Virus record (IMG/VR): IMGVR_UViG_2541047941_000006
Origin: a virus
Taxonomy: Duplodnaviria > Heunggongvirae > Uroviricota > Caudoviricetes
Reading direction: 5' to 3' (one strand)
DNA length: 23,448 bases
This document shows, piece after piece, positions 1,862-15,435 of the stretch. Each line of letters starts with the position of its first letter. The first letter of the stretch is position 1. The notes beneath the pieces were generated by a model. That model saw nothing but the letters and a program-made list of their open reading frames with translations. It had not been told where the DNA came from and did not search any database. Made by a program: the position numbers and the translations under genes.

Positions 1862-2614
1862 TCAGATTCCCTGGTGAGTAAGAATTTTACTTTCTGAACT
1901 CCTCTGAGAGTATTGACTTGGAGAAACACCAAAATAACGTCTAAATACATAAGTAAAGTATGAGACACTGGCATAACCACAGACCTTAGCTACTTTACTA
2001 ATAGGATAACAACGAGTGCTGAGTAAATATTCAGCCATTTGCATCCTCTCATCAAGTATGATCTTACTGAATGATACCCCCTCTTCTTTCAATTTCATCT
2101 TTAGTAAACTTTCGCTGAGATATAATCTTGATGATATATCCTTAAGACGCCATGATGCAGATAAATCCGTATGAATAATCGTTTTAACTTTAGCCCCTGT
2201 GCTTTTCAAACATCCAAACAGAAATACTCCAAATTGTTTTTCAGAAGAAAATGCAGAGAGACATGTAAAAGCAATAGACTCATCAAAAATTTCTATGTAT
2301 TCAGCACAGTGATTAGCCCAACTAATTAATCCTTTAATTAAACTGAAGTCAGCAAAGTTTATTTTTAAATAAGATGGATATTCCCTACAATCAGAAATAC
2401 CCCTTAAGTTATTAGCTTTCAAATAGCGACTAATAAACTCAGCGCCAAAATCCGCCACTATCACTCTTTCAGGATATGTCAGGAAAAAATCTCTAGAGCT
2501 AGAGTCGACAAGTACAGATGAACCTCTCTCCAGAAACACACTCTCTTTTCCGAAATAAACATCAAAGGACTCCAAAATCAATATAACTGAACATGTAGTT
2601 GCCATATCATCCAC
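1862..2614 (-). CDS. AraC/XylS-family transcriptional regulator (AppY/EnvY-like), low-GC cargo
   Basis: 250-aa ORF; C-terminal double HTH signature (WRLKDISSRLYLSESLLKMKLKEEGVSFSKIILDERMQMAEYLL...KVAKVCGYASVSYFTYVFRRYFGVSPSQY); AT-rich coding and upstream region; flanked by the IS2-like fragment and IS1. Confidence 0.8.
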   Translation of the reverse strand: MDDMATTCSVILILESFDVYFGKESVFLERGSSVLVDSSSRDFFLTYPERVIVADFGAEFISRYLKANNLRGISDCREYPSYLKINFADFSLIKGLISWANHCAEYIEIFDESIAFTCLSAFSSEKQFGVFLFGCLKSTGAKVKTIIHTDLSASWRLKDISSRLYLSESLLKMKLKEEGVSFSKIILDERMQMAEYLLSTRCYPISKVAKVCGYASVSYFTYVFRRYFGVSPSQYSQRSSESKILTHQGI

Positions 2615-2826
2615 CCAATTTAACTGAAACCAGGATGAAGTATATGCATATAAAGTTCACTTTGCCAAACTTCAGTATAAAAAACCACATAAAAAATAGG
2701 GTGTGATAAAAAATACCGTAACAATAAAGCAAAGGATTATAAAATCCGTTACAGTTACAAATGATACTCAAGAAACAATTCCTTAGGAAAAACTTATTTA
2801 CAGCCAATAAGGGTAATGACTCCAAC

Positions 2827-3330
2827 TTATTGATAGTGTTTTATGTTCAGATAATGCCCGATGACTTTGTCATGCAGCTCCACCGATTTTGAGAACGACA
2901 GCGACTTCCGTCCCAGCCGTGCCAGGTGCTGCCTCAGATTCAGGTTATGCCGCTCAATTCGCTGCGTATATCGCTTGCTGATTACGTGCAGCTTTCCCTT
3001 CAGGCGGGATTCATACAGCGGCCAGCCATCCGTCATCCATATCACCACGTCAAAGGGTGACAGCAGGCTCATAAGACGCCCCAGCGTCGCCATAGTGCGT
3101 TCACCGAATACGTGCGCAACAACCGTCTTCCGGAGACTGTCATACGCGTAAAACAGCCAGCGCTGGCGCGATTTAGCCCCGACATAGCCCCACTGTTCGT
3201 CCATTTCCGCGCAGACGATGACGTCACTGCCCGGCTGTATGCGCGAGGTTACCGACTGCGGCCTGAGTTTTTTAAGTGACGTAAAATCGTGTTGAGGCCA
3301 ACGCCCATAATGCGGGCTGTTGCCCGGCAT
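2827..3330 (-). CDS. insB: IS1 InsB (expressed as InsAB' by -1 frameshift)
   Basis: 167-aa ORF overlapping the insA 3' end in the -1 frame, canonical IS1 arrangement. Confidence 0.85.
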
Positions 3331-3524
3331 CCAACGCCATTCATGGCCATATCAATGATTTTCTGGTGCGTACCGGGTTGAGAAGCGGTGTAAGTGAACT
3401 GCAGTTGCCATGTTTTACGGCAGTGAGAGCAGAGATAGCGCTGATGTCCGGCGGTGCTTTTGTCGTTACGCACCACCCCGTCAGTAGCTGAACAGGAGGG
3501 ACAGCTGATAGAAACAGAAGCCAC
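3249..3524 (-). CDS. insA: IS1 InsA
   Basis: 91-aa [46 protein letters not shown]... with zinc-finger and HTH, canonical IS1 InsA. Confidence 0.9.
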
Positions 3525-3673
3525 TGGAGCATCTCAAAAACACCATCATACACTAAATCAGTAAGTTGGCAGCATCACCGGTCGCCACCATATACGGCAG
3601 TTCTCAGGCTCAACTTTCTGAAAGGCTCGGGTGATGTAATATGCGCGTGAGATGCGCTGTGAAATTCAGATGT

Positions 3674-3697
3674 AAAAAAAGCCCCGCATCGCGAGGC
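3674..3697 (-). terminator. Putative intrinsic terminator downstream of Rz
   Basis: On the minus strand GCCUCGC-GAU-GCGGGGC hairpin (one G-U pair) followed by UUUUUUU, about 30 nt after the Rz stop. Confidence 0.45.
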
Positions 3698-3729
3698 TCA
3701 TTAAATGGACTTTGTGATTTGCAAAAAAA

Positions 3730-4188
3730 TTATTTCAGGCATTGCGTCCTGATGTATTCCTGCAGGTAGTTAACCTGCGCGGTTATCTTGTCGATTCCAC
3801 TTCGGAGACGGTAATAATTGAGTTCAGCATCTGCTGTAAGTCCTGGGCTTTCTCCATCGCCCATGCCGCTGGCTCCGGTCGTTGACTTTGCACAGGTGGC
3901 GGCGACTTGCAGGCGCTTACGCCCAGCAGAAACATCAGCACGGAGACTTTCGATAGTCGCGTTAGCATCAGCAAGCTCCTTTGTGTATCTTGCGTCGAGT
4001 TCTGCTACATCACGTTGACGCTTCCGCATGTCAGCGATGGTGGCGTTCGCCTTCTCCAGTTCACTGGCCTTGTTATCGCGCTGCTCTTTGTAGGCGATTG
4101 CGTTATCACGGTAATGATTAACAGCCCATGACAGGCAGACGATGATGCAGATAACCAGAGCATAAATAATCGCGGCGACTCTGCTCAC
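3730..4188 (-). CDS. Rz: Rz inner-membrane spanin (i-spanin)
   Basis: ORF with N-terminal TMD ([28 protein letters not shown]) and coiled-coil-like body, closely resembling lambda Rz. Probable GTG start at 4188 (track ORF starts at TTG 4203); overlaps the endolysin stop. Confidence 0.8.
3783..3974 (-). CDS. Rz1: Rz1 outer-membrane lipoprotein spanin (o-spanin), embedded in Rz +1 frame
   Basis: 63-aa ORF wholly inside Rz; signal peptide with lipobox LLGVSAC followed by a Pro-rich segment ([16 protein letters not shown]), classic Rz1. Confidence 0.7.
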
Positions 4189-4718
4189 TGATCTATCCCC
4201 CAACAGGCTAATGCGCTTTCCTGGTCACGACGAATAACCTGTCCATAGCAGTTATTTGAACGTATGCGGCAATCGCGCCCACCATCTTTTATCCACCAGC
4301 GAATCGCCTCGCATGCACCTTTACGATCACCGGCATTCAGCCGCTTATAAAACGTCGACGGGAAACACTTACCGGGGCCAATGTTATAGGGACAAAATGA
4401 CGCGATACCCGCTTTCTGTGGTTCGGTCAGTGGCACTTTAATATTGCGCTCCACCCATGCCAGCGCCTTATCCCGTTCAATGGCGTTAACCTGGTCGCAT
4501 TTTTCCTTCGACAGTTTCATACCGGGAAAAACGGGTTTTCCATCCACCACCGTGGCACCCCGACAGATGGTCCAGATGCCGGAACCATCGCGGTATGCCG
4601 TTGTGTGGTTACCTTCTTTTTCATCCAGAAACTGGTCGAGAATATCAGGCGCAGGCGCACCGACGGCAATCAGTGCCAGAACGGCAGCCGACAGGCCGTA
4701 TCTGATTTTTGCGTTCAT
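4185..4718 (-). CDS. R: Phage endolysin (lysozyme), probable SAR type, RrrQ-like
   Basis: 177-aa ORF; weakly hydrophobic Ala/Gly-rich N-terminus ([17 protein letters not shown]) ahead of the catalytic domain; sits between the pinholin/ydfR-like genes and Rz. Confidence 0.85.
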
Positions 4719-5061
4719 GGATATTTATCAGGATTTATCGGTTTCTGAACCCTGGATATGTTTATCTGTCCCGGCCTGTTGAATCAGGCAAGGAATAGTT
4801 AAATACAATAGAGAGGATTGTTTATGGACAATAGCACCATTTCTCTACAGGAGTTGCTCGACTGCATTTCCAAGCTTCGGGATGATGTAAATGCCCTTAC
4901 TGTCGCATTTTAATATCTGGCATTCTCAATTCCCAAGGAACAAATGCAACCAACACTGGCATCGCTCCAGCTTGAATCACTCAACCCCAAATGGTCCCAG
5001 CAACAACAAAATTCTTTCAAGTGGCTGGCGGTATTACTGGAAGAAAAATATGCTGGTGAAA

Positions 5062-5406
5062 TTACCATTTCGGCGGAGTATTCAGAGAACCAGTAATTCT
5101 TCCCGGTAGCTTTCCTTTGTAGGTTATCCACACATTCTGCGCCTCTAAAATTATGGGGCGCTTTTCCGGCGACAGCTCATCCCCTTCACATAACCCGGCA
5201 GCAACATCCAGGAAGACCTGTCTGATGCTCCTTCTGGCTGCTGCCTCATAAAACTCCAGCGCGGCACCTTCAACACGGTCCAGCGAGATGTCCAGGTCAA
5301 AAATTTCACCGTCAAAGCGTTTTTTGTCCCGTAACGCTAAAGTTACCGTAACTTTATTCTCAAAATTGCGGATCCCTTTCACAATCAGTTCATAGTTTTG
5401 AGTCAT
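5062..5406 (-). CDS. YdfR-like protein of unknown function in the lysis cassette
   Basis: 114-aa ORF starting 5 nt after the holin stop with RBS GGGAGAG; same holin-ydfR-lysozyme-Rz order as the Qin prophage lysis cassette (recalled). Confidence 0.65.
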   Translation of the reverse strand: MTQNYELIVKGIRNFENKVTVTLALRDKKRFDGEIFDLDISLDRVEGAALEFYEAAARRSIRQVFLDVAAGLCEGDELSPEKRPIILEAQNVWITYKGKLPGRITGSLNTPPKW

Positions 5407-5410
5407 TGAA

Positions 5411-5626
5411 TTACTCTCCCCGTGCAGCCTTACGCTTGTCTTCTTTAATCTTGAAATAAAGGTTTGTCAGGTACGTCAGCAGGCCAAATACCAGGCTACC
5501 CAGCACTCCAATTGCCGCCCACTGTGAGGGCGTGACTTTATCTAGCAGCTGTAAAAACCAGTACCCGGCACTACCTGCTGAGGTGCCATAGGCGACACCC
5601 GTTGTTAACTTATCCATGGATTTCAT
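5411..5626 (-). CDS. S: Class II holin / pinholin (S21-like) with dual-start motif
   Basis: 71-aa [31 protein letters not shown]...[35 protein letters not shown]; two TMDs; Met1-Lys-Ser-Met4 dual start typical of pinholin/antiholin pairs. Confidence 0.9.
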
Positions 5627-5734
5627 AACCCCACCTCGCAGACAAAGCGGGTGTAAATTGAGGGAATACTACGAAACGTAACAGACTCGGAGTCAGTGAA
5701 TAACTCAGGTATTGGGTTATCAGCTAATATCGAG

Positions 5735-5770
5735 ACTCAAAAAATGGAAAAACCCGCTCGACGGCGGGTT
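5735..5770 (-). terminator. Intrinsic terminator upstream of the holin (candidate tR' of the late operon)
   Basis: On the minus strand AAACCCGCC-GUCGA-GCGGGUUU hairpin followed by UUUUUCCAUUUUUU, about 110 nt upstream of the holin start. Confidence 0.5.
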
Positions 5771-6199
5771 TAAGCTGTGTGACGAAGTAACCACTCTTAA
5801 CAGCATAACCAATTTTTTACGTACGTAAACCACTAAATGATATTTGCGAGAATGCTACCGAGTGTTCAAAACACCACCACAAATACATAAGAAAACCTCA
5901 ACAAATAACCAACAAATAATTTCCAGTGTTATTTTTAGCCGATTTAAATTGAACCTTCAAATTATAGAGCACTTATAAATAACAGCCGTTAATATAAATT
6001 GGCTAATAGATTTATTTTTATTCAGCCAAGAGCTATGAATAGGATTCGATAGAAAAAAGTTCAGATAAAAATAGAGATCTACTTCACAAATCAAACGAGA
6101 AACCAAAACTTACATCTTGAAATAATCACATTGATTAGATGAATATTTATCGCGCAGTGACATCATTTTTTAATAATAGTTCAAAAAAAAGGGCTCACG

Positions 6200-7297
6200 A
6201 TGAAAAAATTAACAGTGGCAATTTCTGCTGTAGCTGCATCAGTACTGATGGCGATGTCTGCTCAGGCAGCTGAAATTTATAATAAAGACAGTAACAAGCT
6301 GGATCTGTACGGGAAAGTTAATGCTAAGCACTACTTCTCCTCTAATGATGCAGATGATGGTGATACTACTTATGCCCGTCTTGGCTTCAAAGGTGAAACC
6401 CAAATCAACGATCAACTGACTGGTTTCGGTCAGTGGGAATATGAATTCAAAGGCAACCGCGCTGAATCTCAAGGTTCCTCCAAAGACAAAACCCGTCTTG
6501 CATTTGCAGGCCTGAAATTCGGTGACTACGGCTCAATCGATTACGGCCGTAACTACGGTGTAGCATACGACATCGGTGCGTGGACTGACGTTCTGCCAGA
6601 ATTCGGTGGCGATACCTGGACCCAAACAGATGTGTTCATGACTGGTCGCACCACTGGTGTTGCAACCTATCGTAACAACGACTTCTTTGGTCTGGTTGAT
6701 GGTCTGAACTTTGCTGCTCAGTACCAAGGCAAAAACGATCGTAGCGATTTCGATAACTACACTGAAGGTAACGGTGATGGCTTCGGTTTCTCTGCTACCT
6801 ATGAATACGAAGGATTCGGTATCGGTGCAACTTATGCGAAATCTGATCGTACCGACACTCAAGTTAATGCAGGGAAAGTTCTTCCTGAAGTATTTGCTTC
6901 CGGTAAAAATGCAGAAGTTTGGGCCGCAGGTCTGAAATATGATGCTAACAACATTTACCTGGCCACTACCTATTCTGAAACCCAGAATATGACTGTATTT
7001 GCTGATCACTTCGTTGCTAATAAAGCCCAAAACTTCGAAGCTGTTGCACAATATCAGTTCGATTTCGGTCTGCGTCCGTCCGTTGCTTACCTGCAATCTA
7101 AAGGTAAGGATCTTGGAGTATGGGGCGATCAGGACTTAGTCAAATATGTTGATGTAGGTGCAACCTATTACTTCAACAAAAATATGTCTACTTTCGTTGA
7201 TTACAAAATCAACCTGCTTGACAAAAATGACTTCACTAAAGCACTCGGTGTAAGCACTGATGACATCGTTGCTGTAGGTCTGGTTTACCAGTTCTAA
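6200..7297 (+). CDS. nmpC: Outer-membrane general porin, prophage-encoded NmpC/Lc/OmpD type (intact)
   Basis: 365-aa ORF with signal peptide ([30 protein letters not shown]), porin motifs ([31 protein letters not shown]) and C-terminal VGLVYQF; lies between Q and the lysis genes on the opposite strand, as nmpC does in DLP12. Confidence 0.85.
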
Positions 7298-8092: not shown

Positions 8093-8454
8093 TCATTCAT
8101 CTCCCAGTTCAGTGATGGTCAGTTCCAGCTTTCCACCTTTGACAACCGGCATCTTCACAACGCGGTAATCAACGACCTGAGCATCATCCAGCCAGAAACC
8201 TGCTTTGGTGAGTACGTCAAAAGAGGCTTTTGTAGATTATCCAGGTCACGGCGACGGCGATCCGGCATGTGGCACTCAATGCGGATTTTCACAGGCATAG
8301 CCAGACCGATATCCAGCATTGAGCCTTTAATGATTCGGGCGACGTTATCGCGGTATGCCTGCCCTTCTGCGCTGATGTGCGTGCGCCCTCGATTATGGCG
8401 GTAGTAGCGGTTATTGCTCGGCGGCCAGGGTAGTGTGATGTGGTAAGTATTCAC
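8093..8454 (-). pseudogene. rusA: rusA Holliday-junction resolvase, frameshifted
   Basis: N-terminal 76 aa in one frame ([25 protein letters not shown]...[12 protein letters not shown]), then the C-terminal 44 aa ([44 protein letters not shown]) continue in the -1 frame; the shift maps to a T4 run at 8229-8232 (A4 on the coding strand). Confidence 0.8.
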
Positions 8455-8741: not shown

Positions 8742-8904
8742 GACTCCTCCTTGCTGCCAGTCGCAACCATTTTTTATCAACCAGGCTGGCGGTATACCCG
8801 AGCAGTGTTGGTATTTCGGATGGCTTCAGCTCAGGTTTACGCTTACGACGATTTGGTACTCTGTAGATGTGTCCGTTCATGACACGAATAAGCGGTGTAG
8901 CCAT
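8734..8904 (-). CDS. ninE: NinE
   Basis: 56 aa from ATG 8904: [56 protein letters not shown]. Confidence 0.8.
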   Translation of the reverse strand: MATPLIRVMNGHIYRVPNRRKRKPELKPSEIPTLLGYTASLVDKKWLRLAARRSHG

Positions 8905-9359
8905 TACGCCTCCTGCTTGTCGCGGAGCTGCTGGAACTCGCAGCTCTGCGGAATAGTCAGATGGCAACCAATATTCATCGCCCAGGCTTCAACCTTACAC
9001 AGGAAGACATACATCTCTCCGGTATCAAGATCGGAGGTATGGCGTAACGACTGGATAGTGGTGATATCACCGGTTACGACATCAACCAGGTCCTTGGTTT
9101 CATAACCGAGGTATGTGTGTTTGAGAGCATCTTTTACCCATGCTGAAGTAGCGAACGATTTCCCCCTGCTGATGAGGTATTCACTGATTTCGCTGTACCA
9201 CATGTGGCTGAGTGCATTCTGGGAAAGACTGCGTTTCTCACGCCACGGTTTAAGCACCATGCGAAAGCATTTGCCTTCCTCCAGATAAGGCTGGATCTGC
9301 TGGCCGATAGCGGTGAAGTTGCCGCGATGTAATTTGATGCCGTCTTGTGGGAGGTTCAC
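8904..9359 (-). CDS. ybcN: YbcN-like nin-region protein (DNA base-flipping protein family)
   Basis: 151-aa ORF ([57 protein letters not shown]...), GTG start with RBS GGAGGTG. Confidence 0.8.
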
Positions 9360-9547
9360 GCTTCACCTCCGCAGAGGTCAAACGCTAGATGCAAAGAATT
9401 GCAGGTGCATTTCTGCATCAGTGAAGGGAGAAGAGAGTTTGGATTGTATGTGCGCATAAACGTCCCCGTTTAGCGCAGAAGTCACCGGAGTTGTTCAGGC
9501 TCCGAGGACATTATTATTGCTGGTTGATAATGGAAAATCAAAGCTTA

Positions 9548-9829
9548 CTAAGCTGAGGAGGATTTCTTGGGGTGATATTTACGGATTGCAGCATCAATAC
9601 GGACGCGGGATGGTAAGACATCGAATGCTATGTTGTAGTATTCACTATCAAACGCTTGATGTCTCACAACATTAAATTCTTTAAACTCAGTCACTTGGTA
9701 AACCACTGGTTCATTGGAATTGGTAGAACGCACTACCGATTTCGTTACCACGCTTATCTTATCAAGCCCTGCTTCATCGTTCTTTATATCGCCTTCATGA
9801 CCTAAACCAAAAACTAAGTAATCTTCCAC
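9548..9829 (-). CDS. Hypothetical protein (93 aa), low-GC insert in the nin region
   Basis: GTG start preceded by AGGAG (6-nt spacer); no family recognised; AT-rich; immediately downstream of the small exported protein. Confidence 0.5.
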   Translation of the reverse strand: MEDYLVFGLGHEGDIKNDEAGLDKISVVTKSVVRSTNSNEPVVYQVTEFKEFNVVRHQAFDSEYYNIAFDVLPSRVRIDAAIRKYHPKKSSSA

Positions 9830-9872
9830 GTTAAGCTCCTATAAGATTTTGTTATATGTCGTTTTTGGCCAA

Positions 9873-10121
9873 TTATTTCATTAAACTTTTTGAGACAAAT
9901 ACTTGTTCGCACTTTGCCATATATGGCTCTCTGCCTGATACTTCATGGTATAGAGCATGATTTAGCATAATGTTTTTCATGCTTTCTTCGCAGTCTTTCC
10001 TGCTATAAAAGACGTTTACCGGCTCTTTTGTGGTGTTGACATTCACTACTTCCACTGAACAACCTGACATATTGCTGAGGCTAGCACAGGTGCTCAAAAC
10101 CAGCACAAATAGTTCGTGCAT
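9873..10121 (-). CDS. Hypothetical small exported protein / possible lipoprotein (82 aa), low-GC insert
   Basis: ATG 10121 with strong RBS AAGGGAG (7-nt spacer); N-terminal signal-like segment MHELFVLVLSTCASLSNMSGC with a possible lipobox Cys; four Cys in total. Confidence 0.55.
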   Translation of the reverse strand: MHELFVLVLSTCASLSNMSGCSVEVVNVNTTKEPVNVFYSRKDCEESMKNIMLNHALYHEVSGREPYMAKCEQVFVSKSLMK

Positions 10122-10297
10122 AAAACGACTCCCTTATCTATGTGCTGGTTATATTGCCCAAATTCTAATAGAAATTACGACTATTTTTTAACGGCAGCAA
10201 CATCTTGTATTCCTAAACTTAGCAGAAGGCGGTGGGTAAAGACGGTACCATAGTGTCATTTCGATGGCCTCCTGTCGAAAACAATAGGCCTTCGATG

Positions 10298-10582
10298 CTA
10301 AGTTCTGTATACCGACAATACCCGTTTCATCGCGGCACTCTGGCGACACTCCTTAAAAATCATATTCGTGCTCACCTTTCCTTCCCGTTCTTCTCTGGTA
10401 GCGAACCGGTAATACACCGTTCGCCAGACCTTACCATCAACGACCAGGATTCCTGCCCGCGCCATTTTAGCCGCAGCCTGATTTATGCTGGCTACGGTTG
10501 CGCCTGTTACCGCGGCAACGTCCTGCGCACAGAAGTTCTTATGAGTCCCCAGGTAATGAATAATTGCCTCTTTGCCCGTCAT
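10298..10582 (-). CDS. ren: Ren (lambda ren-like)
   Basis: 94 aa MTGKEAIIHYLGTHKNFCAQDVAAVTGATVASINQAAAKMARAGILVVDGKVWRTVYYRFATREEREGK..., closely resembling lambda Ren; directly downstream of P. Confidence 0.8.
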   Translation of the reverse strand: MTGKEAIIHYLGTHKNFCAQDVAAVTGATVASINQAAAKMARAGILVVDGKVWRTVYYRFATREEREGKVSTNMIFKECRQSAAMKRVLSVYRT

Positions 10583-11280
10583 GCTCTTGCTCCTTTCAGC
10601 CCAAACTTAGCTTTGATTTCTGCGATCTTCGCCAGAGCCTGTGTACGATTTAGAGGTCTACCGCCCATGACAGGAAGTTGTTTTACTGGTTCAGGGATCG
10701 CCTCACCACGGTTAATTCTCGCAGTCATATGGACAAGCTCATCTGCGGCCTTACGGCGTAATTCCGCATCAGTAAGCGCATTGGCCCGCATGTTCTGATA
10801 CAGGTTGGTAACCAGCCAGTAGTGCGCGTTTGATTTCCACGGATAAGACTCCGCATCCGGATACAGGCCTCGCTTCCGGCAATACTCGTAAACCATATCA
10901 ACCAGCTCGCTGACGTTTGGCAGTCCGGCGATAACGGATGCTTCTTCCCGGCACCATGCAACAAACTGCCCGGGTGATGGCAGGAATGGTCGATTCTGCC
11001 GACGGGCTACGCGCATTCCTGCGTTAACCTGTTCCATTGTGGTGATCCCGTTTTCCCGGAAAGCCAGAACCCACTGGCGGCGGATTTCGTTCAGTTCGTT
11101 CTGATCCCGGTTAGCCAGGCTCGCCGGGAAAGTTGCCAGTAACTGGCTGAACACACCGTTGATGATCTGCGCTACCTGCTGTACCTGCGGCTTTTCGTCG
11201 TACTGTTCCGGCATGTTGTTGGCGATCCGACGCATCTGCTCACGGTCAAAGTTAACCATCTGTGCGGCGATGTTTTTCAT
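10579..11280 (-). CDS. P: Replication protein P (DnaB helicase loader), lambda type
   Basis: 233 aa MKNIAAQMVNFDREQMRRIANNMPEQYDEKPQVQQVAQIINGVFSQLL..., near-identical to recalled lambda P; ATGA overlaps with O and ren. Confidence 0.9.
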   Translation of the reverse strand: MKNIAAQMVNFDREQMRRIANNMPEQYDEKPQVQQVAQIINGVFSQLLATFPASLANRDQNELNEIRRQWVLAFRENGITTMEQVNAGMRVARRQNRPFLPSPGQFVAWCREEASVIAGLPNVSELVDMVYEYCRKRGLYPDAESYPWKSNAHYWLVTNLYQNMRANALTDAELRRKAADELVHMTARINRGEAIPEPVKQLPVMGGRPLNRTQALAKIAEIKAKFGLKGARA

Positions 11281-12206
11281 AAATCCACCCCGTAAATCCA
11301 GTCAGTGTTCGTCAGGTCGAGTTTTGGTTTGCCGGCTGTCACGCCAGCCTGTTGCTTGTTTCGGTTGATTTCGAGCTGGGTCCACTTGTCGCGGAGTTTG
11401 GCCGGACTCAGCACGTTACCGGACCAGAAGTTGTCCTGGCATGCCCAGCGGAACAGCACGCACATGTCGCGGTGGTTACGTCCGTCACGTTCACGCATCA
11501 GGCGGATATCGTTAGCCCACCCTGCAAAATTCGGTTTTCTGGCTGAGGGCGCGATGGTCTTCACCATGTCAAACATCCACTCTGCGGCGGTCAGGTCTTC
11601 TGCTGTCCCCCACTTGCTGCCGCTCTGAATTGCAGCATCTGGTTTCACCACAGGAAGATCGTTTTCTGGTTGGTCAGAGGATTCGCCAGAATTCTCGGAC
11701 GAAAAAGGTTTTATATTGTCTTTTGTTAGTTTGTCTTTTGTGTTTACCTGATTCGGGTAAACGCCTTTACCTGATTTGGGTAAACTTTTCTTACCTGATT
11801 CAGGTAAATTTACCTCTTTCAGGTAAACTTTATTTTTCTTACCTGATTCGGGTAATGTTGCCCATTCACTGACCACATTATTAATACCGATATTCCGCCC
11901 GCTCTGAATCAAAATCCCACGCTTTACCAGAACACTTTTTGCAGCAGAACACTTGTGCGGCAATATCCCGGTCAATTCGGACAGTTGCTCGTTGCTCACC
12001 CAATCCAGTTTTTTATTAAAGCCATATGTTTTGCGCATGACAGCCAGGAAGACCAGAAGCTGGTGCTGTGTTAATCCGGCCAGCATCACAGCTTCCAGCA
12101 ACTCATTTGCAATGCGCGTATAACCATCATCGAGATCTGCCACGCGCGGCTCCTTTTGTGCCGCATCCGGCACTGGAAAATTGAATATCTCAGCAGTGTT
12201 TGCCAT
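11277..12206 (-). CDS. O: Replication initiator O (lambdoid, non-lambda iteron specificity)
   Basis: Start reassigned to ATG 12206 (MANTAEIFNFPVPD...) with RBS GGGAGGAATT; N-terminal domain is O-like, the linker encodes the iterons (LPESGKK repeats), and the C-terminal domain matches lambda O, consistent with the lambda-type P. Confidence 0.85.
   Translation of the reverse strand: MANTAEIFNFPVPDAAQKEPRVADLDDGYTRIANELLEAVMLAGLTQHQLLVFLAVMRKTYGFNKKLDWVSNEQLSELTGILPHKCSAAKSVLVKRGILIQSGRNIGINNVVSEWATLPESGKKNKVYLKEVNLPESGKKSLPKSGKGVYPNQVNTKDKLTKDNIKPFSSENSGESSDQPENDLPVVKPDAAIQSGSKWGTAEDLTAAEWMFDMVKTIAPSARKPNFAGWANDIRLMRERDGRNHRDMCVLFRWACQDNFWSGNVLSPAKLRDKWTQLEINRNKQQAGVTAGKPKLDLTNTDWIYGVDL
11744..11855. 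repeat. Origin of replication: five 17-bp palindromic iterons inside the O gene
   Basis: TTACCTGATTCGGGTAA at 11744, 11767, 11791, 11810 (variant TTACCTCTTTCAGGTAA) and 11839; flanked at about 11700-11742 by an AT-rich stretch (GTTTTATATTGTCTTTTGTTAGTTTGTCTTTTG). Confidence 0.8.
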
Positions 12207-12292
12207 AATTCCTCCCGCAATGAGTGTGTTACGATTTGCACCTGAAAGTCGGTTCTGTTCCCGCAGACCGACTTTCGCCATTTCTGAACCTG

Positions 12293-12832
12293 TCATATTG
12301 CCCCCAGCATGGTGGTCACCATCGCCATTAATGGACCAGCCAGATCCGGGTCCACACGAAACATCGACACAATACCTTCACTCATTTCCTTCAGTTTCTG
12401 GTGGCGTGGTGCGTTGAGAATGACAGCCTGTTTTGCCTCACTGAGTTCCTTTTCCATTTCAGCCAACCGAGTCATGAAGCTATCCTGCTCAACCAGGTAA
12501 CCGCGATATTCCAGCGGTAGTACCGCCAGAATTGCCGGGGTCAGTTCACGCACGTTATTTCGGTATTTTTCAGAATCGAATTTGTTATCGAGGAAGCGGA
12601 ACAGCTTCTGGCGTGCACGACTGACATCATCAGGGAAATCGATGGTGCCGCCGCCCTGCTCCCGATACTCATTCACAATGAGTGCGGCAACAACATCCTG
12701 ATTATCTGCAGCCGACCAGGCGCGAACGGCATCACGGATTTTTTCGTGGCCTGCCGCCTGTTTTGTTTGAGAACGATTTATCAGCGCAGCCGGGGTAATT
12801 CCGCTAGTCTGTTGGTATGTAATTGGTTGCAT
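12293..12832 (-). CDS. YdaT-like protein in the cII position
   Basis: 179-aa ORF directly downstream of cro with RBS AAGGA; roughly twice the size of lambda CII; tentatively the YdaT family that accompanies YdaS/Cro-like genes in Rac-type immunity regions. Confidence 0.55.
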   Translation of the reverse strand: MQPITYQQTSGITPAALINRSQTKQAAGHEKIRDAVRAWSAADNQDVVAALIVNEYREQGGGTIDFPDDVSRARQKLFRFLDNKFDSEKYRNNVRELTPAILAVLPLEYRGYLVEQDSFMTRLAEMEKELSEAKQAVILNAPRHQKLKEMSEGIVSMFRVDPDLAGPLMAMVTTMLGAI

Positions 12833-13158: not shown

Positions 13159-13207
13159 TTAATCTGAATCAAGATTAAAACTATGGTTGTTTTTAGTCAA
13201 CAACCAT
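13159..13207. promoter_or_regulatory. OR operator region with two palindromes, overlapping the PR promoter for cro
   Basis: Perfect palindromes ATGGTTGTT-N7-AACAACCAT (13183-13207) and TTAATCT-N6-AGATTAA (13159-13178); minus-strand -35 TTGACT (13195-13200) and -10 TAATCT (13172-13177) ahead of cro. Confidence 0.5.
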
Positions 13208-13213
13208 TTTCGT

Positions 13214-13242
13214 TTGATGTAATAAAACCCTGGTTGTACATT
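13214..13242 (+). promoter_or_regulatory. Putative PRM promoter giving a leaderless cI transcript
   Basis: -35 TTGATG (13214-13219), 17-bp spacer, -10 TACATT (13237-13242), then 6 nt to the cI ATG at 13249; no SD sequence. Confidence 0.4.
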
Positions 13243-13248
13243 TGGTCT

Positions 13249-13938
13249 ATGAAAACAACACTCTCAGAAAGACTTAAAGAAGCCAGATTAGCGCGAGGCC
13301 TTACACAAAAGGCGCTTGGGGATTTGGTCGGGGTTAGCCAAGCTGCTATTCAGAAAATCGAAACAGGGAAAGCTAACCAAACAACTAAAATCGTGGAGAT
13401 CGCGAACGCTTTGGGTGTGCGCGCAGAATGGTTATCTTCTGGCGTTGGAAATATGTCAGACAGTACAGTGCAACCAATACAATCAACTGTCAGCCATTCC
13501 AAATACTTTAAGATTGACGTTCTTGATATAGAAGTGAGTGCCGGGCCGGGAGTCATCAACCGTGAGTTTGTAGAAGTTCTACGCTCGGTTGAGTACTCGT
13601 TTGACGATGCTCGTCACATGTTCGATGGTAGGAAGGCAGAAAATATCCGCATCATTAACGTGCGTGGTGACAGCATGTCAGGAACGATCGAACCAGGTGA
13701 TCTGCTGTTCGTTGATATCACGGTTAAATCTTTCGACGGTGATGGTATCTATGCGTTTCTGTATGACGACACAGCCCATGTAAAGCGCCTGCAAATGATG
13801 AAGGATAAGCTGCTGGTTATCTCTGATAACAAAAGCTACTCACCGTGGGACCCGATCGAGAAAGATGAGATGAACCGGGTATTTATCTTCGGGAAAGTTA
13901 TTGGGAGCATGCCGCAGACGTATAGGAAGCATGGATAG
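13249..13938 (+). CDS. cI: CI-type prophage repressor (HTH plus S24 LexA-like autopeptidase domain)
   Basis: 229 aa from ATG 13249 (track ORF starts upstream at 13183); N-terminal HTH (LTQKALGDLVGVSQAAIQKIETGK); C-terminal peptidase motifs (VRGDSMSGTIEPGDLLFVD ... HVKRLQ). Confidence 0.85.
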   Translation: MKTTLSERLKEARLARGLTQKALGDLVGVSQAAIQKIETGKANQTTKIVEIANALGVRAEWLSSGVGNMSDSTVQPIQSTVSHSKYFKIDVLDIEVSAGPGVINREFVEVLRSVEYSFDDARHMFDGRKAENIRIINVRGDSMSGTIEPGDLLFVDITVKSFDGDGIYAFLYDDTAHVKRLQMMKDKLLVISDNKSYSPWDPIEKDEMNRVFIFGKVIGSMPQTYRKHG

Positions 13939-14006: not shown

Positions 14007-15080
14007 ATGGAGAACTTAATGGATACTTTAAAATATGAGAAATTCTCTGATTTTGATCACAATGACCCATTTTTTGACTCTTTAAAAAAAGATTATAAAG
14101 AGTTTCCTCTTTGGTTAGAAAAAAAAGCCAGAGAAGGAGAATCAGCTTATGTGCTCTATGATGACAAGCATAAAATCGAAGGTTTTATGTATCTAAAAGA
14201 AAATGATGATGCAAATGACATTAATCCAGCGCTCCCACCAGGACGTCATCTAAAGATAGGAACATTCAAATTTGAATCTAAAGGCACCCTTCGCGGACAA
14301 CGATTTCTAAAAAAAGCGTTTGACCATGCATTTTCATCAAAATCTGATGATATTTATGTTACTGTTTTCGACAAACACGTCCATCTAATAAAACTTTTCC
14401 AAACGTACGGATTTTACATTCATGGTGAAAAAGAAACACATAACGGGAAAGAGTTTGTATATGCGAGGTCTTTGCATGAGCCTTATGGTGATATTTTATT
14501 AGATTACCCTCGAATAATGACATCAAGGGCCAACAAATATTTACTGGCGATTTATCCCGAATATCACACTAGACTATTCCCTGATTCAAAACTTGTAAAT
14601 GAATCACCAGATATTGTCAAAGATATATCCCATGCTAACAGCATTCATAAAATTTACATATGTGGAATGCGTTCTGTGATGGGAATGAAAAGAGGAGATA
14701 TCATTGTCATCTATAGAACCGGAGACAAAAAAGGGCCAGCTCGCTATCGTTCTGTAGCCAGTACATTATGTGTAGTTGAGAGCGTAAAAAATATTTCTGA
14801 ATTTTTAAGCGAAGATAGTTTTGTAGACTATTGTATTCGTTTTAGCGTATTTTCTGAAGATGAACTCAGAAAAATCTATAAAGAACGTCGATACCCTTTC
14901 ATTATAAGATTCACATACAATCTGTCTTTGCCAAAGAGACCCAATCGTGCTATTTTAATAGATCATGTGGGGCTAAATGGTTCGCGTGCATTCCGATGGA
15001 GTCACTTTAAACTCACAAATGAGCAGTTCTTAAAGATCATCGAGTTAGGCAAGATAAATGAAAGTTTTATTATCCATTAA
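14007..15080 (+). CDS. Hypothetical 357-aa protein: N-terminal GNAT-like acyltransferase region fused to a C-terminal PUA-like region (candidate exclusion/defence effector)
   Basis: Long AT-rich ORF directly downstream of cI (rexA position); GNAT-like motifs by eye (GTLRGQRFLKKAFDHAF; LFQTYGFYIHGE); C-terminal segment with PUA/ASCH-like strands (LLAIYPEYHTRLF; KRGDIIVIYRTGD). More likely start is ATG 14019 (GGAG 6 nt upstream). Domain calls are unverified. Confidence 0.7.
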   Translation: MENLMDTLKYEKFSDFDHNDPFFDSLKKDYKEFPLWLEKKAREGESAYVLYDDKHKIEGFMYLKENDDANDINPALPPGRHLKIGTFKFESKGTLRGQRFLKKAFDHAFSSKSDDIYVTVFDKHVHLIKLFQTYGFYIHGEKETHNGKEFVYARSLHEPYGDILLDYPRIMTSRANKYLLAIYPEYHTRLFPDSKLVNESPDIVKDISHANSIHKIYICGMRSVMGMKRGDIIVIYRTGDKKGPARYRSVASTLCVVESVKNISEFLSEDSFVDYCIRFSVFSEDELRKIYKERRYPFIIRFTYNLSLPKRPNRAILIDHVGLNGSRAFRWSHFKLTNEQFLKIIELGKINESFIIH

Positions 15081-15435
15081 GCCTGAGTTTGCAGAAAAAA
15101 TATTGAACGGAACAAAGCGGTTCGAGTTTCGTAAAGGTATATTCAAAAATCCGCAAATTAGCACCGTTGTTATTTATGCCACGATGCCATTAGGTAAAGT
15201 TGTTGGTCAATTCCGTATTGAATCAATACTAAGTGACGAACCGGAATCTCTTTGGAAAAAGACGGAAAAACACGCAGGTATTTCTAAGCAATTTTATGAC
15301 TCATATTATTCAGGTAGAGAAAAGGCCTACGCAATAAAAATTGGTGAAGTGGAAAGATATAAAGAACCAATTCCTATCTCTGCTCTAGGGAGTAATATTA
15401 AGCCACCACAATCATATCTTTACCTACCTGCGTAA
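15058..15435 (+). CDS. ASCH-domain (PUA-like) protein, 125 aa, translationally coupled to the upstream gene
   Basis: N-terminus MKVLLSIKPEFAEKILNGTKRFEFRK matches the ASCH beta1/GxKxxExR signature; start overlaps the upstream gene by 23 nt; AT-rich. Confidence 0.7.
   Translation: MKVLLSIKPEFAEKILNGTKRFEFRKGIFKNPQISTVVIYATMPLGKVVGQFRIESILSDEPESLWKKTEKHAGISKQFYDSYYSGREKAYAIKIGEVERYKEPIPISALGSNIKPPQSYLYLPA

Follow-up and report, generated by a model that had tools for sequence, protein, structure and literature searches.

In the 23,448-nucleotide Caudoviricetes record IMGVR_UViG_2541047941_000006 (hereafter the window, meaning this whole stretch of DNA), we confirmed two real AT-rich genes in the slot between ren and ybcN of a lambdoid prophage. 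Positions 9548-10121 hold exactly two minus-strand open reading frames (ORFs), orf82 (10121..9873, 82 amino acids (aa)) and orf93 (9829..9548, 93 aa), which are co-oriented with O, P and ren upstream and with ylcH and ybcN downstream. On balance, we favour the explanation that they form a mosaic, AT-rich cargo block in the early-right (nin) operon of a DLP12/phage-82-like prophage and provide two independent small accessory functions, with the product of orf82 perhaps acting at the envelope and that of orf93 probably being soluble. An earlier note on this DNA had described two co-oriented small genes with good ribosome-binding sites and a lower GC content than their neighbours, and the coordinates, Shine-Dalgarno sites and GC values all agree with it. 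The ATG of orf82 lies 7 nt downstream of AAGGGAG (10129..10135, minus strand), of which GGGAG is kept across all aligned orthologues. The start codon of orf93 is GTG here and ATG in Enterobacter and Klebsiella, and lies 6 nt downstream of AGGAG (9836..9840, minus strand), also kept in the alignment. GC content is 0.394 in orf82, 0.408 in orf93 and 0.388 in the whole cassette, compared with 0.516 in ren, 0.536 in P and 0.507 in ybcN, and at third codon positions (GC3) it is 0.37-0.43 for orf82 and orf93 versus 0.57-0.61 for the flanking genes.

The interval between ren and ylcH/ybcN is a hypervariable slot for cargo in which no one set of genes is the rule, because different genes occupy the stretch from ren to ybcN or ninB in different phages. 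These are emrE-ybcK-ybcL-ybcM in PhiR34_1 (the DLP12-type arrangement), EmrE with a hypothetical gene and an alpha/beta hydrolase in Lambda_4C10, and three unrelated small ORFs in Sakai Sp15. In the IMG/VR lambdoid contig L055 (2969-7822), the slot before ybcN contains a 666-aa colicin/pyocin-like gene, an 85-aa nuclease-immunity-like gene, a remote (35%) homologue of orf93 and a 216-aa ORF. Sakai Sp15 was considered as a carrier of orf82 and orf93 and rejected, as the pair is absent there. The variable moron or cargo site proposed in the earlier note is thus borne out by the synteny of this interval, which shows quite different genes in related phages. Its further statement that the insert replaces the usual ren-to-ybcN content needs correction, since no such content exists and ylcH (orf33 of phage 82) is retained. 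The block is inserted between genes that are adjacent in relatives and has a deviant GC content (0.39 versus about 0.52), as expected of a moron. The slot is not mentioned in a review of grounded prophages retrieved by our literature search.

Homology to other lambdoid phages ends at about 10308, within the last codons of ren (10298..10582, minus strand; PHROG 142, Ren-like), which anchors the slot on the left. The homology resumes at about 9545, just upstream of a putative -35/-10 pair and of the inverted repeat that precedes orf33 in phage 82. The right anchor (9356..9545, minus strand), delimited using the X92588 annotation, a promoter scan and phage homology, comprises this putative promoter (-35 at 9536-9541, -10 at 9513-9518), the inverted repeat at 9481-9509, which is annotated as regulator-binding in phage 82 (X92588), and ylcH/orf33 (33 codons, 9356-9457, from the same phage 82 annotation). 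It is followed by ybcN (8904-9359, minus strand), which has a weak match to the NinB family in Pfam, slightly under the curated cut-off. On the other side, P (10579-11280) and O (11277-12296), both on the minus strand, lie upstream of ren.

The variable block between these anchors (about 9546 to about 10307) is larger than the two ORFs and contains a 176-nt leader and filler region. It can be divided into a mosaic cassette at about 9546-10206 (about 0.66 kb) and a filler of about 90 nt that reaches ren. Alignment of the upstream regions showed that the part shared with the Enterobacter loci begins about 85 nt upstream of the orf82 ATG. At this point (10181..10206, minus strand) the alignment reveals a recombination scar, in which ~25 nt from the 3' end of another gene survive together with its TAG stop (10181-10183); in Enterobacter phages this gene (...AMLAAVKK*) stands ahead of orf82. 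Judged from this alignment, the scar is the left edge of the imported cassette, left over from the donor context, and E. coli obtained orf82 and orf93 as one piece from Enterobacter-type lambdoid phages. The filler between the ren stop codon and the cassette (10207..10297, minus strand) is specific to E. coli and was identified only in 89-90 carrier genomes. Positions 10197-10266 are 85% identical to sequence adjoining trkG in Rac-type prophages of 19 other genomes, and a perfect 9-nt inverted repeat (AACTTAGCA / TGCTAAGTT, at 10216-10224 and 10296-10304) flanks the filler, with one arm overlapping the ren stop codon.

The closest parallel is the emrE-ybcK-ybcL-ybcM cargo of DLP12-type phages. 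Both blocks use the same slot and the same anchors (the ren 3' end and the phage-82 orf33/ylcH promoter), both have a GC content off that of the backbone, and both appear dispensable and unrelated to the phage core. In contrast to that cargo of about 4 kb, the block with orf82 and orf93 spans 0.66 kb, contains wholly different genes, is co-oriented with the operon, lacks a convincing promoter and terminator of its own and consists of two separately assorting modules.

We found the block in 90 of 5426 complete E. coli genomes, always in single copy, with both genes and at least 99.6% identity. The carriers include many O157:H7 and O55:H7 strains, with the prophage at mlrA/yehV, as well as O9:H10 and other strains, and in strain 644-PT8 the carrier prophage includes stx1a. 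Orthologues of orf82 are at least 78% identical and confined to Escherichia and Enterobacter prophages. In the 18 IMG/VR contigs with orf82, orf93 is invariably located 42-48 nt downstream. The synteny comparison suggested in the earlier note thus shows the two genes together in other prophages, both of them conserved. Their surroundings include different virion modules, namely lambda-like (L001), ClpP-capsid fusion (L066) and, in Enterobacter, Terminase_6C/portal_3 types. Among 50,697 phage records, orf82 has no tblastn match; orf93 has no close copy in deposited phage genomes, its best tblastn match being 33% identical and located in a Klebsiella phage.

By tblastn, a distant homologue of orf82 was detected on plasmids of Klebsiella, Enterobacter, Raoultella and Escherichia, 24 in all, which are of ColE1 type (Rop-bearing) and 3.4-3.8 kb in size. 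Its identity to orf82 is 29.6% over residues 1-81 (E 5e-7 against the database, 1e-15 pairwise). The 89-aa gene (L068, 1300-1569, plus strand, and 23 similar plasmids) is mostly unannotated, and in OW848920 a 34-aa ORF on the opposite strand is called instead. Using this plasmid homologue as query, a scan of viral contigs retrieved nothing. A metagenome scan retrieved only the two subfamilies of orf82 already found.

Both orf82 and orf93 are genuine protein genes under purifying selection, and not chance ORFs, because they are conserved across genera with ratios of nonsynonymous to synonymous substitution (dN/dS) of 0.03-0.20. Against the Enterobacter and Klebsiella orthologues, the ratios are 0.13-0.20 for orf82 and 0.03-0.18 for orf93, with a synonymous divergence (dS) of up to 0.85. 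Both proteins are annotated only as hypothetical in public records, and we found no paper that mentions the accessions of either. The start of orf82 differs among these annotations, which give 82, 65, 60 or 57 aa; the 82-aa form is present on at least 1000 contigs, as is the 65-aa form, which begins at Met18. The 82-aa form is favoured because the only Shine-Dalgarno sequence stands before Met1, because codons 10-17 vary mainly (and codons 1-17 mostly) at third positions, and because the plasmid homologue aligns with orf82 without gaps from Met1. The same three observations, including the lack of a Shine-Dalgarno sequence before Met18, led us to reject the 65-aa form.

The start of orf82 is enclosed by an RNA stem-loop (10098..10150, minus strand) detected in an inverted-repeat search. 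Its perfect 10-nt arms lie at 10141-10150 (5' arm, RNA AACCAGCACA) and at 10098-10107 (3' arm, UGUGCUGGUU, within codons 5-8), with the Shine-Dalgarno sequence and the AUG in between. The stem dominates the minimum-energy fold of every orf82 orthologue, and all 10 pairs form in 9 distinct sequences, the sole change being a C-to-U that keeps a G.U pair. There is no synonymous change in the 3' arm, and such a repeat bracketing the start codon occurred in only 3 of 2000 dinucleotide shuffles. Since the Shine-Dalgarno sequence and AUG lie inside a conserved 10-bp stem, we suggest that the stem may throttle translation of orf82. The stem has no compensatory changes, which weighs against this role, so that its support comes from conservation and position only. 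The plasmid homologue lacks it. The excess of synonymous conservation at the 5' end of orf82 is a trend only (p about 0.05-0.07). The whole leader folds no better than shuffled sequence (z = -0.47), with only the 10-bp stem standing out, and the Rfam search returned no RNA family. By analogy only, the arrangement resembles those of lambda cIII, lambda S (sdi) and type I toxin mRNAs, whose translation-initiation regions are likewise sequestered in a stem; in orf82, the helix around the Shine-Dalgarno sequence and the AUG overlaps the ribosome footprint. Unlike these, the orf82 stem has neither compensatory changes nor a known regulator, and the plasmid homologue of orf82 is stemless.

The product of orf82 begins with MHELFVLVLSTCASLSNMSGC and contains four Cys (C12, C21, C44 and C71), the number given in the earlier note, all of which are invariant. 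Residues 4-15 form a hydrophobic h-region (LFVLVLSTCASL) with an LFVLVL run and a 9-residue Kyte-Doolittle mean of 2.62. This is the pattern expected of a lipoprotein, with a hydrophobic h-region of 7-22 residues followed by a Cys at position 15-35 (Cys21). The Cys is at exactly position 21 in both subfamilies, after small residues and before Ser (MSGC-S in orf82 and IASC-S in the plasmid homologue), and C44 and C71 could form a disulfide. We therefore consider, tentatively and at slightly less than an even chance, that orf82 is envelope-targeted, being exported or inserted through its hydrophobic N-terminus as a non-canonical lipoprotein anchored at Cys21. The hydrophobic N-terminus would direct inner-membrane insertion or export, Cys21 would serve as the anchor, C44 and C71 would be joined in a disulfide, and the mobile element would benefit from what the protein does at the envelope.

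A range of features weighs against this envelope reading. The n-region has no Lys or Arg in either subfamily (MHE, or MNE in L033, and MPY in the plasmid homologue), and neither residue occurs before residue 32. In M-S-G-C, Met occupies position -3 and Asn position -4, and both PROSITE PS51257 and the G+LPP pattern fail; the I-A-S-C of the plasmid homologue fits a four-residue lipobox but also has Asn at -4. A published definition of lipoproteins combines the lipobox [LV(I)][ASTVI][GAS]C with a positive n-region (Lys or Arg within the first ~7 residues) (PMC8048626), and orf82 has neither. Furthermore, C12 and N17, both part of the supposed signal peptide, do not vary even at 30% identity, and the N-terminal 25 codons are the slowest-evolving part of orf82, the opposite of what is typical of signal peptides. 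A variant seen in a single read has Asp at -1. An AlphaFold2 (AF2) model from a shallow alignment, which weighs only weakly given its predicted local distance difference test score (pLDDT) of 62, places residues 2-12 in a sheet strand of a compact alpha/beta fold. For the favoured explanation as a whole, it also counts that searches of Pfam, NCBIfam, PHROGs, PADLOC and PDB linked neither orf82 nor orf93 to a protein whose function is known. Scans of Pfam, NCBIfam and PADLOC (Pfam and PADLOC at E up to 1) assigned no family to either protein, PHROGs returned for orf82 only two families of unknown function (E 0.016 and 0.1), and sequence and profile searches of PDB gave nothing or a spurious match to V-ATPase E (E 0.34). 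Three k-mer searches and one exhaustive HMMER search detected no relative of known function for either protein. Of the lipoprotein-like call in the earlier note, the hydrophobic N-terminus, the Cys21 after small residues and the retention of this motif at 30% identity stand, whereas the missing positive n-region and the failure of both patterns leave the predicted lipoprotein status unsafe.

Much of this evidence would fit a cytosolic four-Cys protein, which is a serious if somewhat less probable alternative for orf82. In its fuller form, for which our confidence is lower still, orf82 would be a compact cytoplasmic alpha/beta protein whose N-terminus is a core beta-strand and whose four Cys form a metal site or structural cluster, and together with orf93 it would belong to the small early proteins of host-takeover or anti-defence type that neutralise a host factor on entry. 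The uncharged n-regions, the failed lipobox rules, the slow evolution of the N-terminus and the invariant C12 and N17 would all be accounted for. In the AF2 model, the strand formed by residues 2-12 has a pLDDT of 68 against a model mean of 61.7, and the fold is compact (predicted template modelling score 0.50). The N-terminus of the plasmid homologue (YIYAIILTT) is beta-prone and Tyr-rich, and the gene is common to a phage early operon and mobilisable plasmids, with no tie to any particular virion module. However, one would sooner expect 6-7 uniformly hydrophobic residues at the extreme N-terminus in a signal or anchor segment than in a strand of a two-layer sandwich, no known zinc motif has the Cys spacing C-x8-C-x22-C-x26-C, and there is no match to a PADLOC or anti-defence family.

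The earlier note raised superinfection exclusion as a possible role for small envelope proteins such as that of orf82; of this idea, the specific version in which orf82 is a receptor-blocking lipoprotein of the Cor/Llp type appears improbable. Ser at +2 of lipoproteins goes with outer-membrane sorting. This Ser, the 62-aa mature part, the possible lipid anchor and the one possible disulfide resemble T5 Llp and the Cor proteins of phi80 and N15. More broadly, Cor (phi80/N15/HK022), Llp (T5) and Bor (lambda) share with orf82 a small size, a hydrophobic N-terminus, a Cys near position 20, further Cys and carriage by temperate phages. They differ in that orf82 has no sequence relationship to them, has a non-canonical n-region and lipobox, lies in the early nin operon and not next to tail genes, and has a homologue on ColE1-type plasmids. 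We consider such a receptor blocker unlikely because no PHROG or Pfam family of exclusion lipoproteins is matched at E up to 1, because the gene shows no linkage to any one virion module, and because its homologue occurs on tiny plasmids, which have no interest in a receptor. Its location away from the tail-fibre and receptor-binding genes, its carriage with the three kinds of morphogenetic module named above (L001, L066 and Enterobacter) and the putative nature of its lipoprotein status also speak against this role.

The second gene, orf93, encodes a full-length member of phrog_16870 (E 7.7e-63, residues 1-93 of the 93-position profile), a PHROG of unknown function, with an additional weak match to phrog_17438. 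The two profiles were matched by 11/11 and 10/11 of the orf93-family members tested, respectively. An exhaustive HMMER search of 1.8 billion representatives returned only 8 clusters. PHROGs 16870 and 17438 place orf93 within a family that has no known function and, for orf93 itself, no close copy among deposited phage genomes. The family members are ~90 aa long and share three motifs (DY[LM][IV]FG.G..GE[IV][KR], YN[VI]A and P.....AI..Y.P.P). They occur in the early regions of other phages and, in Pantoea, on the chromosome. These Pantoea members (L058-L063, around 4001-4255) are 28-31% identical to orf93, are chromosomal in several species and were the only, remote, relatives found in a scan of genome contigs; in L058 the gene adjoins a short-chain dehydrogenase and a major facilitator superfamily transporter, with no obvious prophage around it. 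The orf93 protein has no hydrophobic segment and an isoelectric point of 5.9, and the AF2 model, of low confidence (pLDDT 55, shallow alignment), shows a beta-rich fold with a C-terminal helix. It would be a soluble, acidic early protein of the cytoplasm that binds a host or phage partner.

The distribution of the two genes points to two independent modules and not to a two-component system. Wherever orf82 occurs in a prophage (90 E. coli genomes, 18 IMG/VR contigs, the Enterobacter loci), orf93 lies just downstream, but orf93 is common without orf82, and its left neighbour is then a DUF2767-like 79/85-aa gene or a 60-aa zinc-ribbon gene. Conversely, no orf93 was detected on the ColE1-type plasmids that bear the orf82 homologue. 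In the isolate-derived IMG/VR contig L029 (6290-6580), orf93 has two frameshifts and orf82 is intact; this may be a real pseudogene or an assembly error. The 42-48 nt spacer between the two genes is poorly conserved and represents a mosaic joint. Because of these four observations, we conclude that the genes assort independently, and the functional two-gene unit of the earlier note was not supported. On the other side of orf93, ninB or ybcN always follows 184-190 nt downstream. Thus, orf93 is part of a conserved block on the right, at whose end lies the ylcH-ninB/ybcN promoter region, and accepts different left neighbours, and in the simplest reading orf82 is one of several genes able to occupy the position to its left.

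If the genes were a functional pair in which orf82 needs orf93, one product could, for example, be a small toxic membrane protein and the other its antidote, or both could serve in exclusion or abortive infection as a two-gene module. The constant presence of orf93 immediately downstream of orf82 in prophages would agree with this, as would the stem sequestering the Shine-Dalgarno sequence, which resembles the tight translational control of toxic small proteins. We nevertheless regard it as very improbable, given the separate occurrence of each gene, the intact orf82 beside a frameshifted orf93 in L029, the poorly conserved spacer without translational coupling, and the absence of a helix-turn-helix or antitoxin-like domain in the Pfam scan and of any PADLOC match. 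An obligate pair, including a toxin-antitoxin system, is contradicted by orf93 without orf82, the plasmid homologue without orf93 and the frameshifted orf93 of L029.

As both genes are co-oriented with the operon and have no convincing promoter or terminator of their own, we infer that, by default, they would be transcribed with the delayed-early pR (nin) transcript. The conserved leader of orf82 includes a weak promoter-like site (TTAAAA-18-TAGAAT, 9/12; 10162..10191, minus strand). The scan gave 3 such sites versus 2.4 expected by shuffling, no excess over chance, and Enterobacter does not retain the -10 hexamer. Expression from the lysogen is no more than a possibility. No convincing terminator was found after the block. 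Taken together, the explanation we favour is that a mosaic cassette brought two genes into the nin operon, where orf82, its translation throttled by the stem, and orf93 would each supply a dispensable accessory function.

That orf82 and orf93 are decaying, non-functional remnants of a defective prophage can practically be set aside: the prophage is degraded elsewhere (rusA frameshifted, IS1 present) and occasional truncated or frameshifted copies exist (P0009, L029), but nearly all of the more than 100 loci have undamaged reading frames and the dN/dS of 0.03-0.20 across genera contradicts decay, contrary to the degenerate state that the earlier note had allowed for.

The prophage of the window itself is probably defective. 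In rusA (8155-8454, minus strand), a 1-nt deletion in an A-run at ~8231, relative to the intact 120-aa gene of L001, gives a 99-aa frameshifted product, which may be a pseudogene or a homopolymer sequencing error. The late region (1862-7297) is DLP12-like and degraded, and contains an AraC-family regulator (1862-2614), an IS1 transposase (2827-3330), a DUF1327 gene (5062-5406) and an NmpC-type porin (6200-7297, plus strand). Just downstream of the cI-like repressor (13183-13938), positions 14007-15435 (plus strand) encode a 357-aa ORF and an overlapping 125-aa ASCH-domain ORF, which match components A (E 2e-133) and B (E 7e-52) of the PADLOC candidate defence system PDC-M11. The O157:H7 relatives have a SIR2-family gene at this position.

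Some of the lineages whose prophages carry the block are of clinical importance; in many O157:H7 and O55:H7 strains it lies in the prophage integrated at mlrA/yehV, which in one of them includes stx1a. As it stands, the finding adds two more conserved hypothetical genes to a slot already known to collect cargo. Its practical value lies in three corrections, namely that the genes are no pair, that the lipoprotein call is unsafe and that public annotations disagree on the start of orf82. The occurrence of orf82 in both prophages and ColE1-type plasmids and its gated start site make cheap experiments possible. More speculatively, and with rather low confidence, orf82 may represent a new four-Cys family of mobile elements, common to lambdoid prophages and tiny ColE1-type plasmids and stem-gated in the phage, which acts either as a non-canonical envelope lipoprotein (for example in orphan immunity or exclusion) or, in the cytosol, as a metal-binding protein that inhibits a host factor of defence or housekeeping, with orf93 as a separate new family of nin-region effectors. 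Should either protein turn out to work in exclusion, immunity or anti-defence, the accessory genes of lambdoid and Shiga toxin (Stx)-type prophages would gain a small new family.

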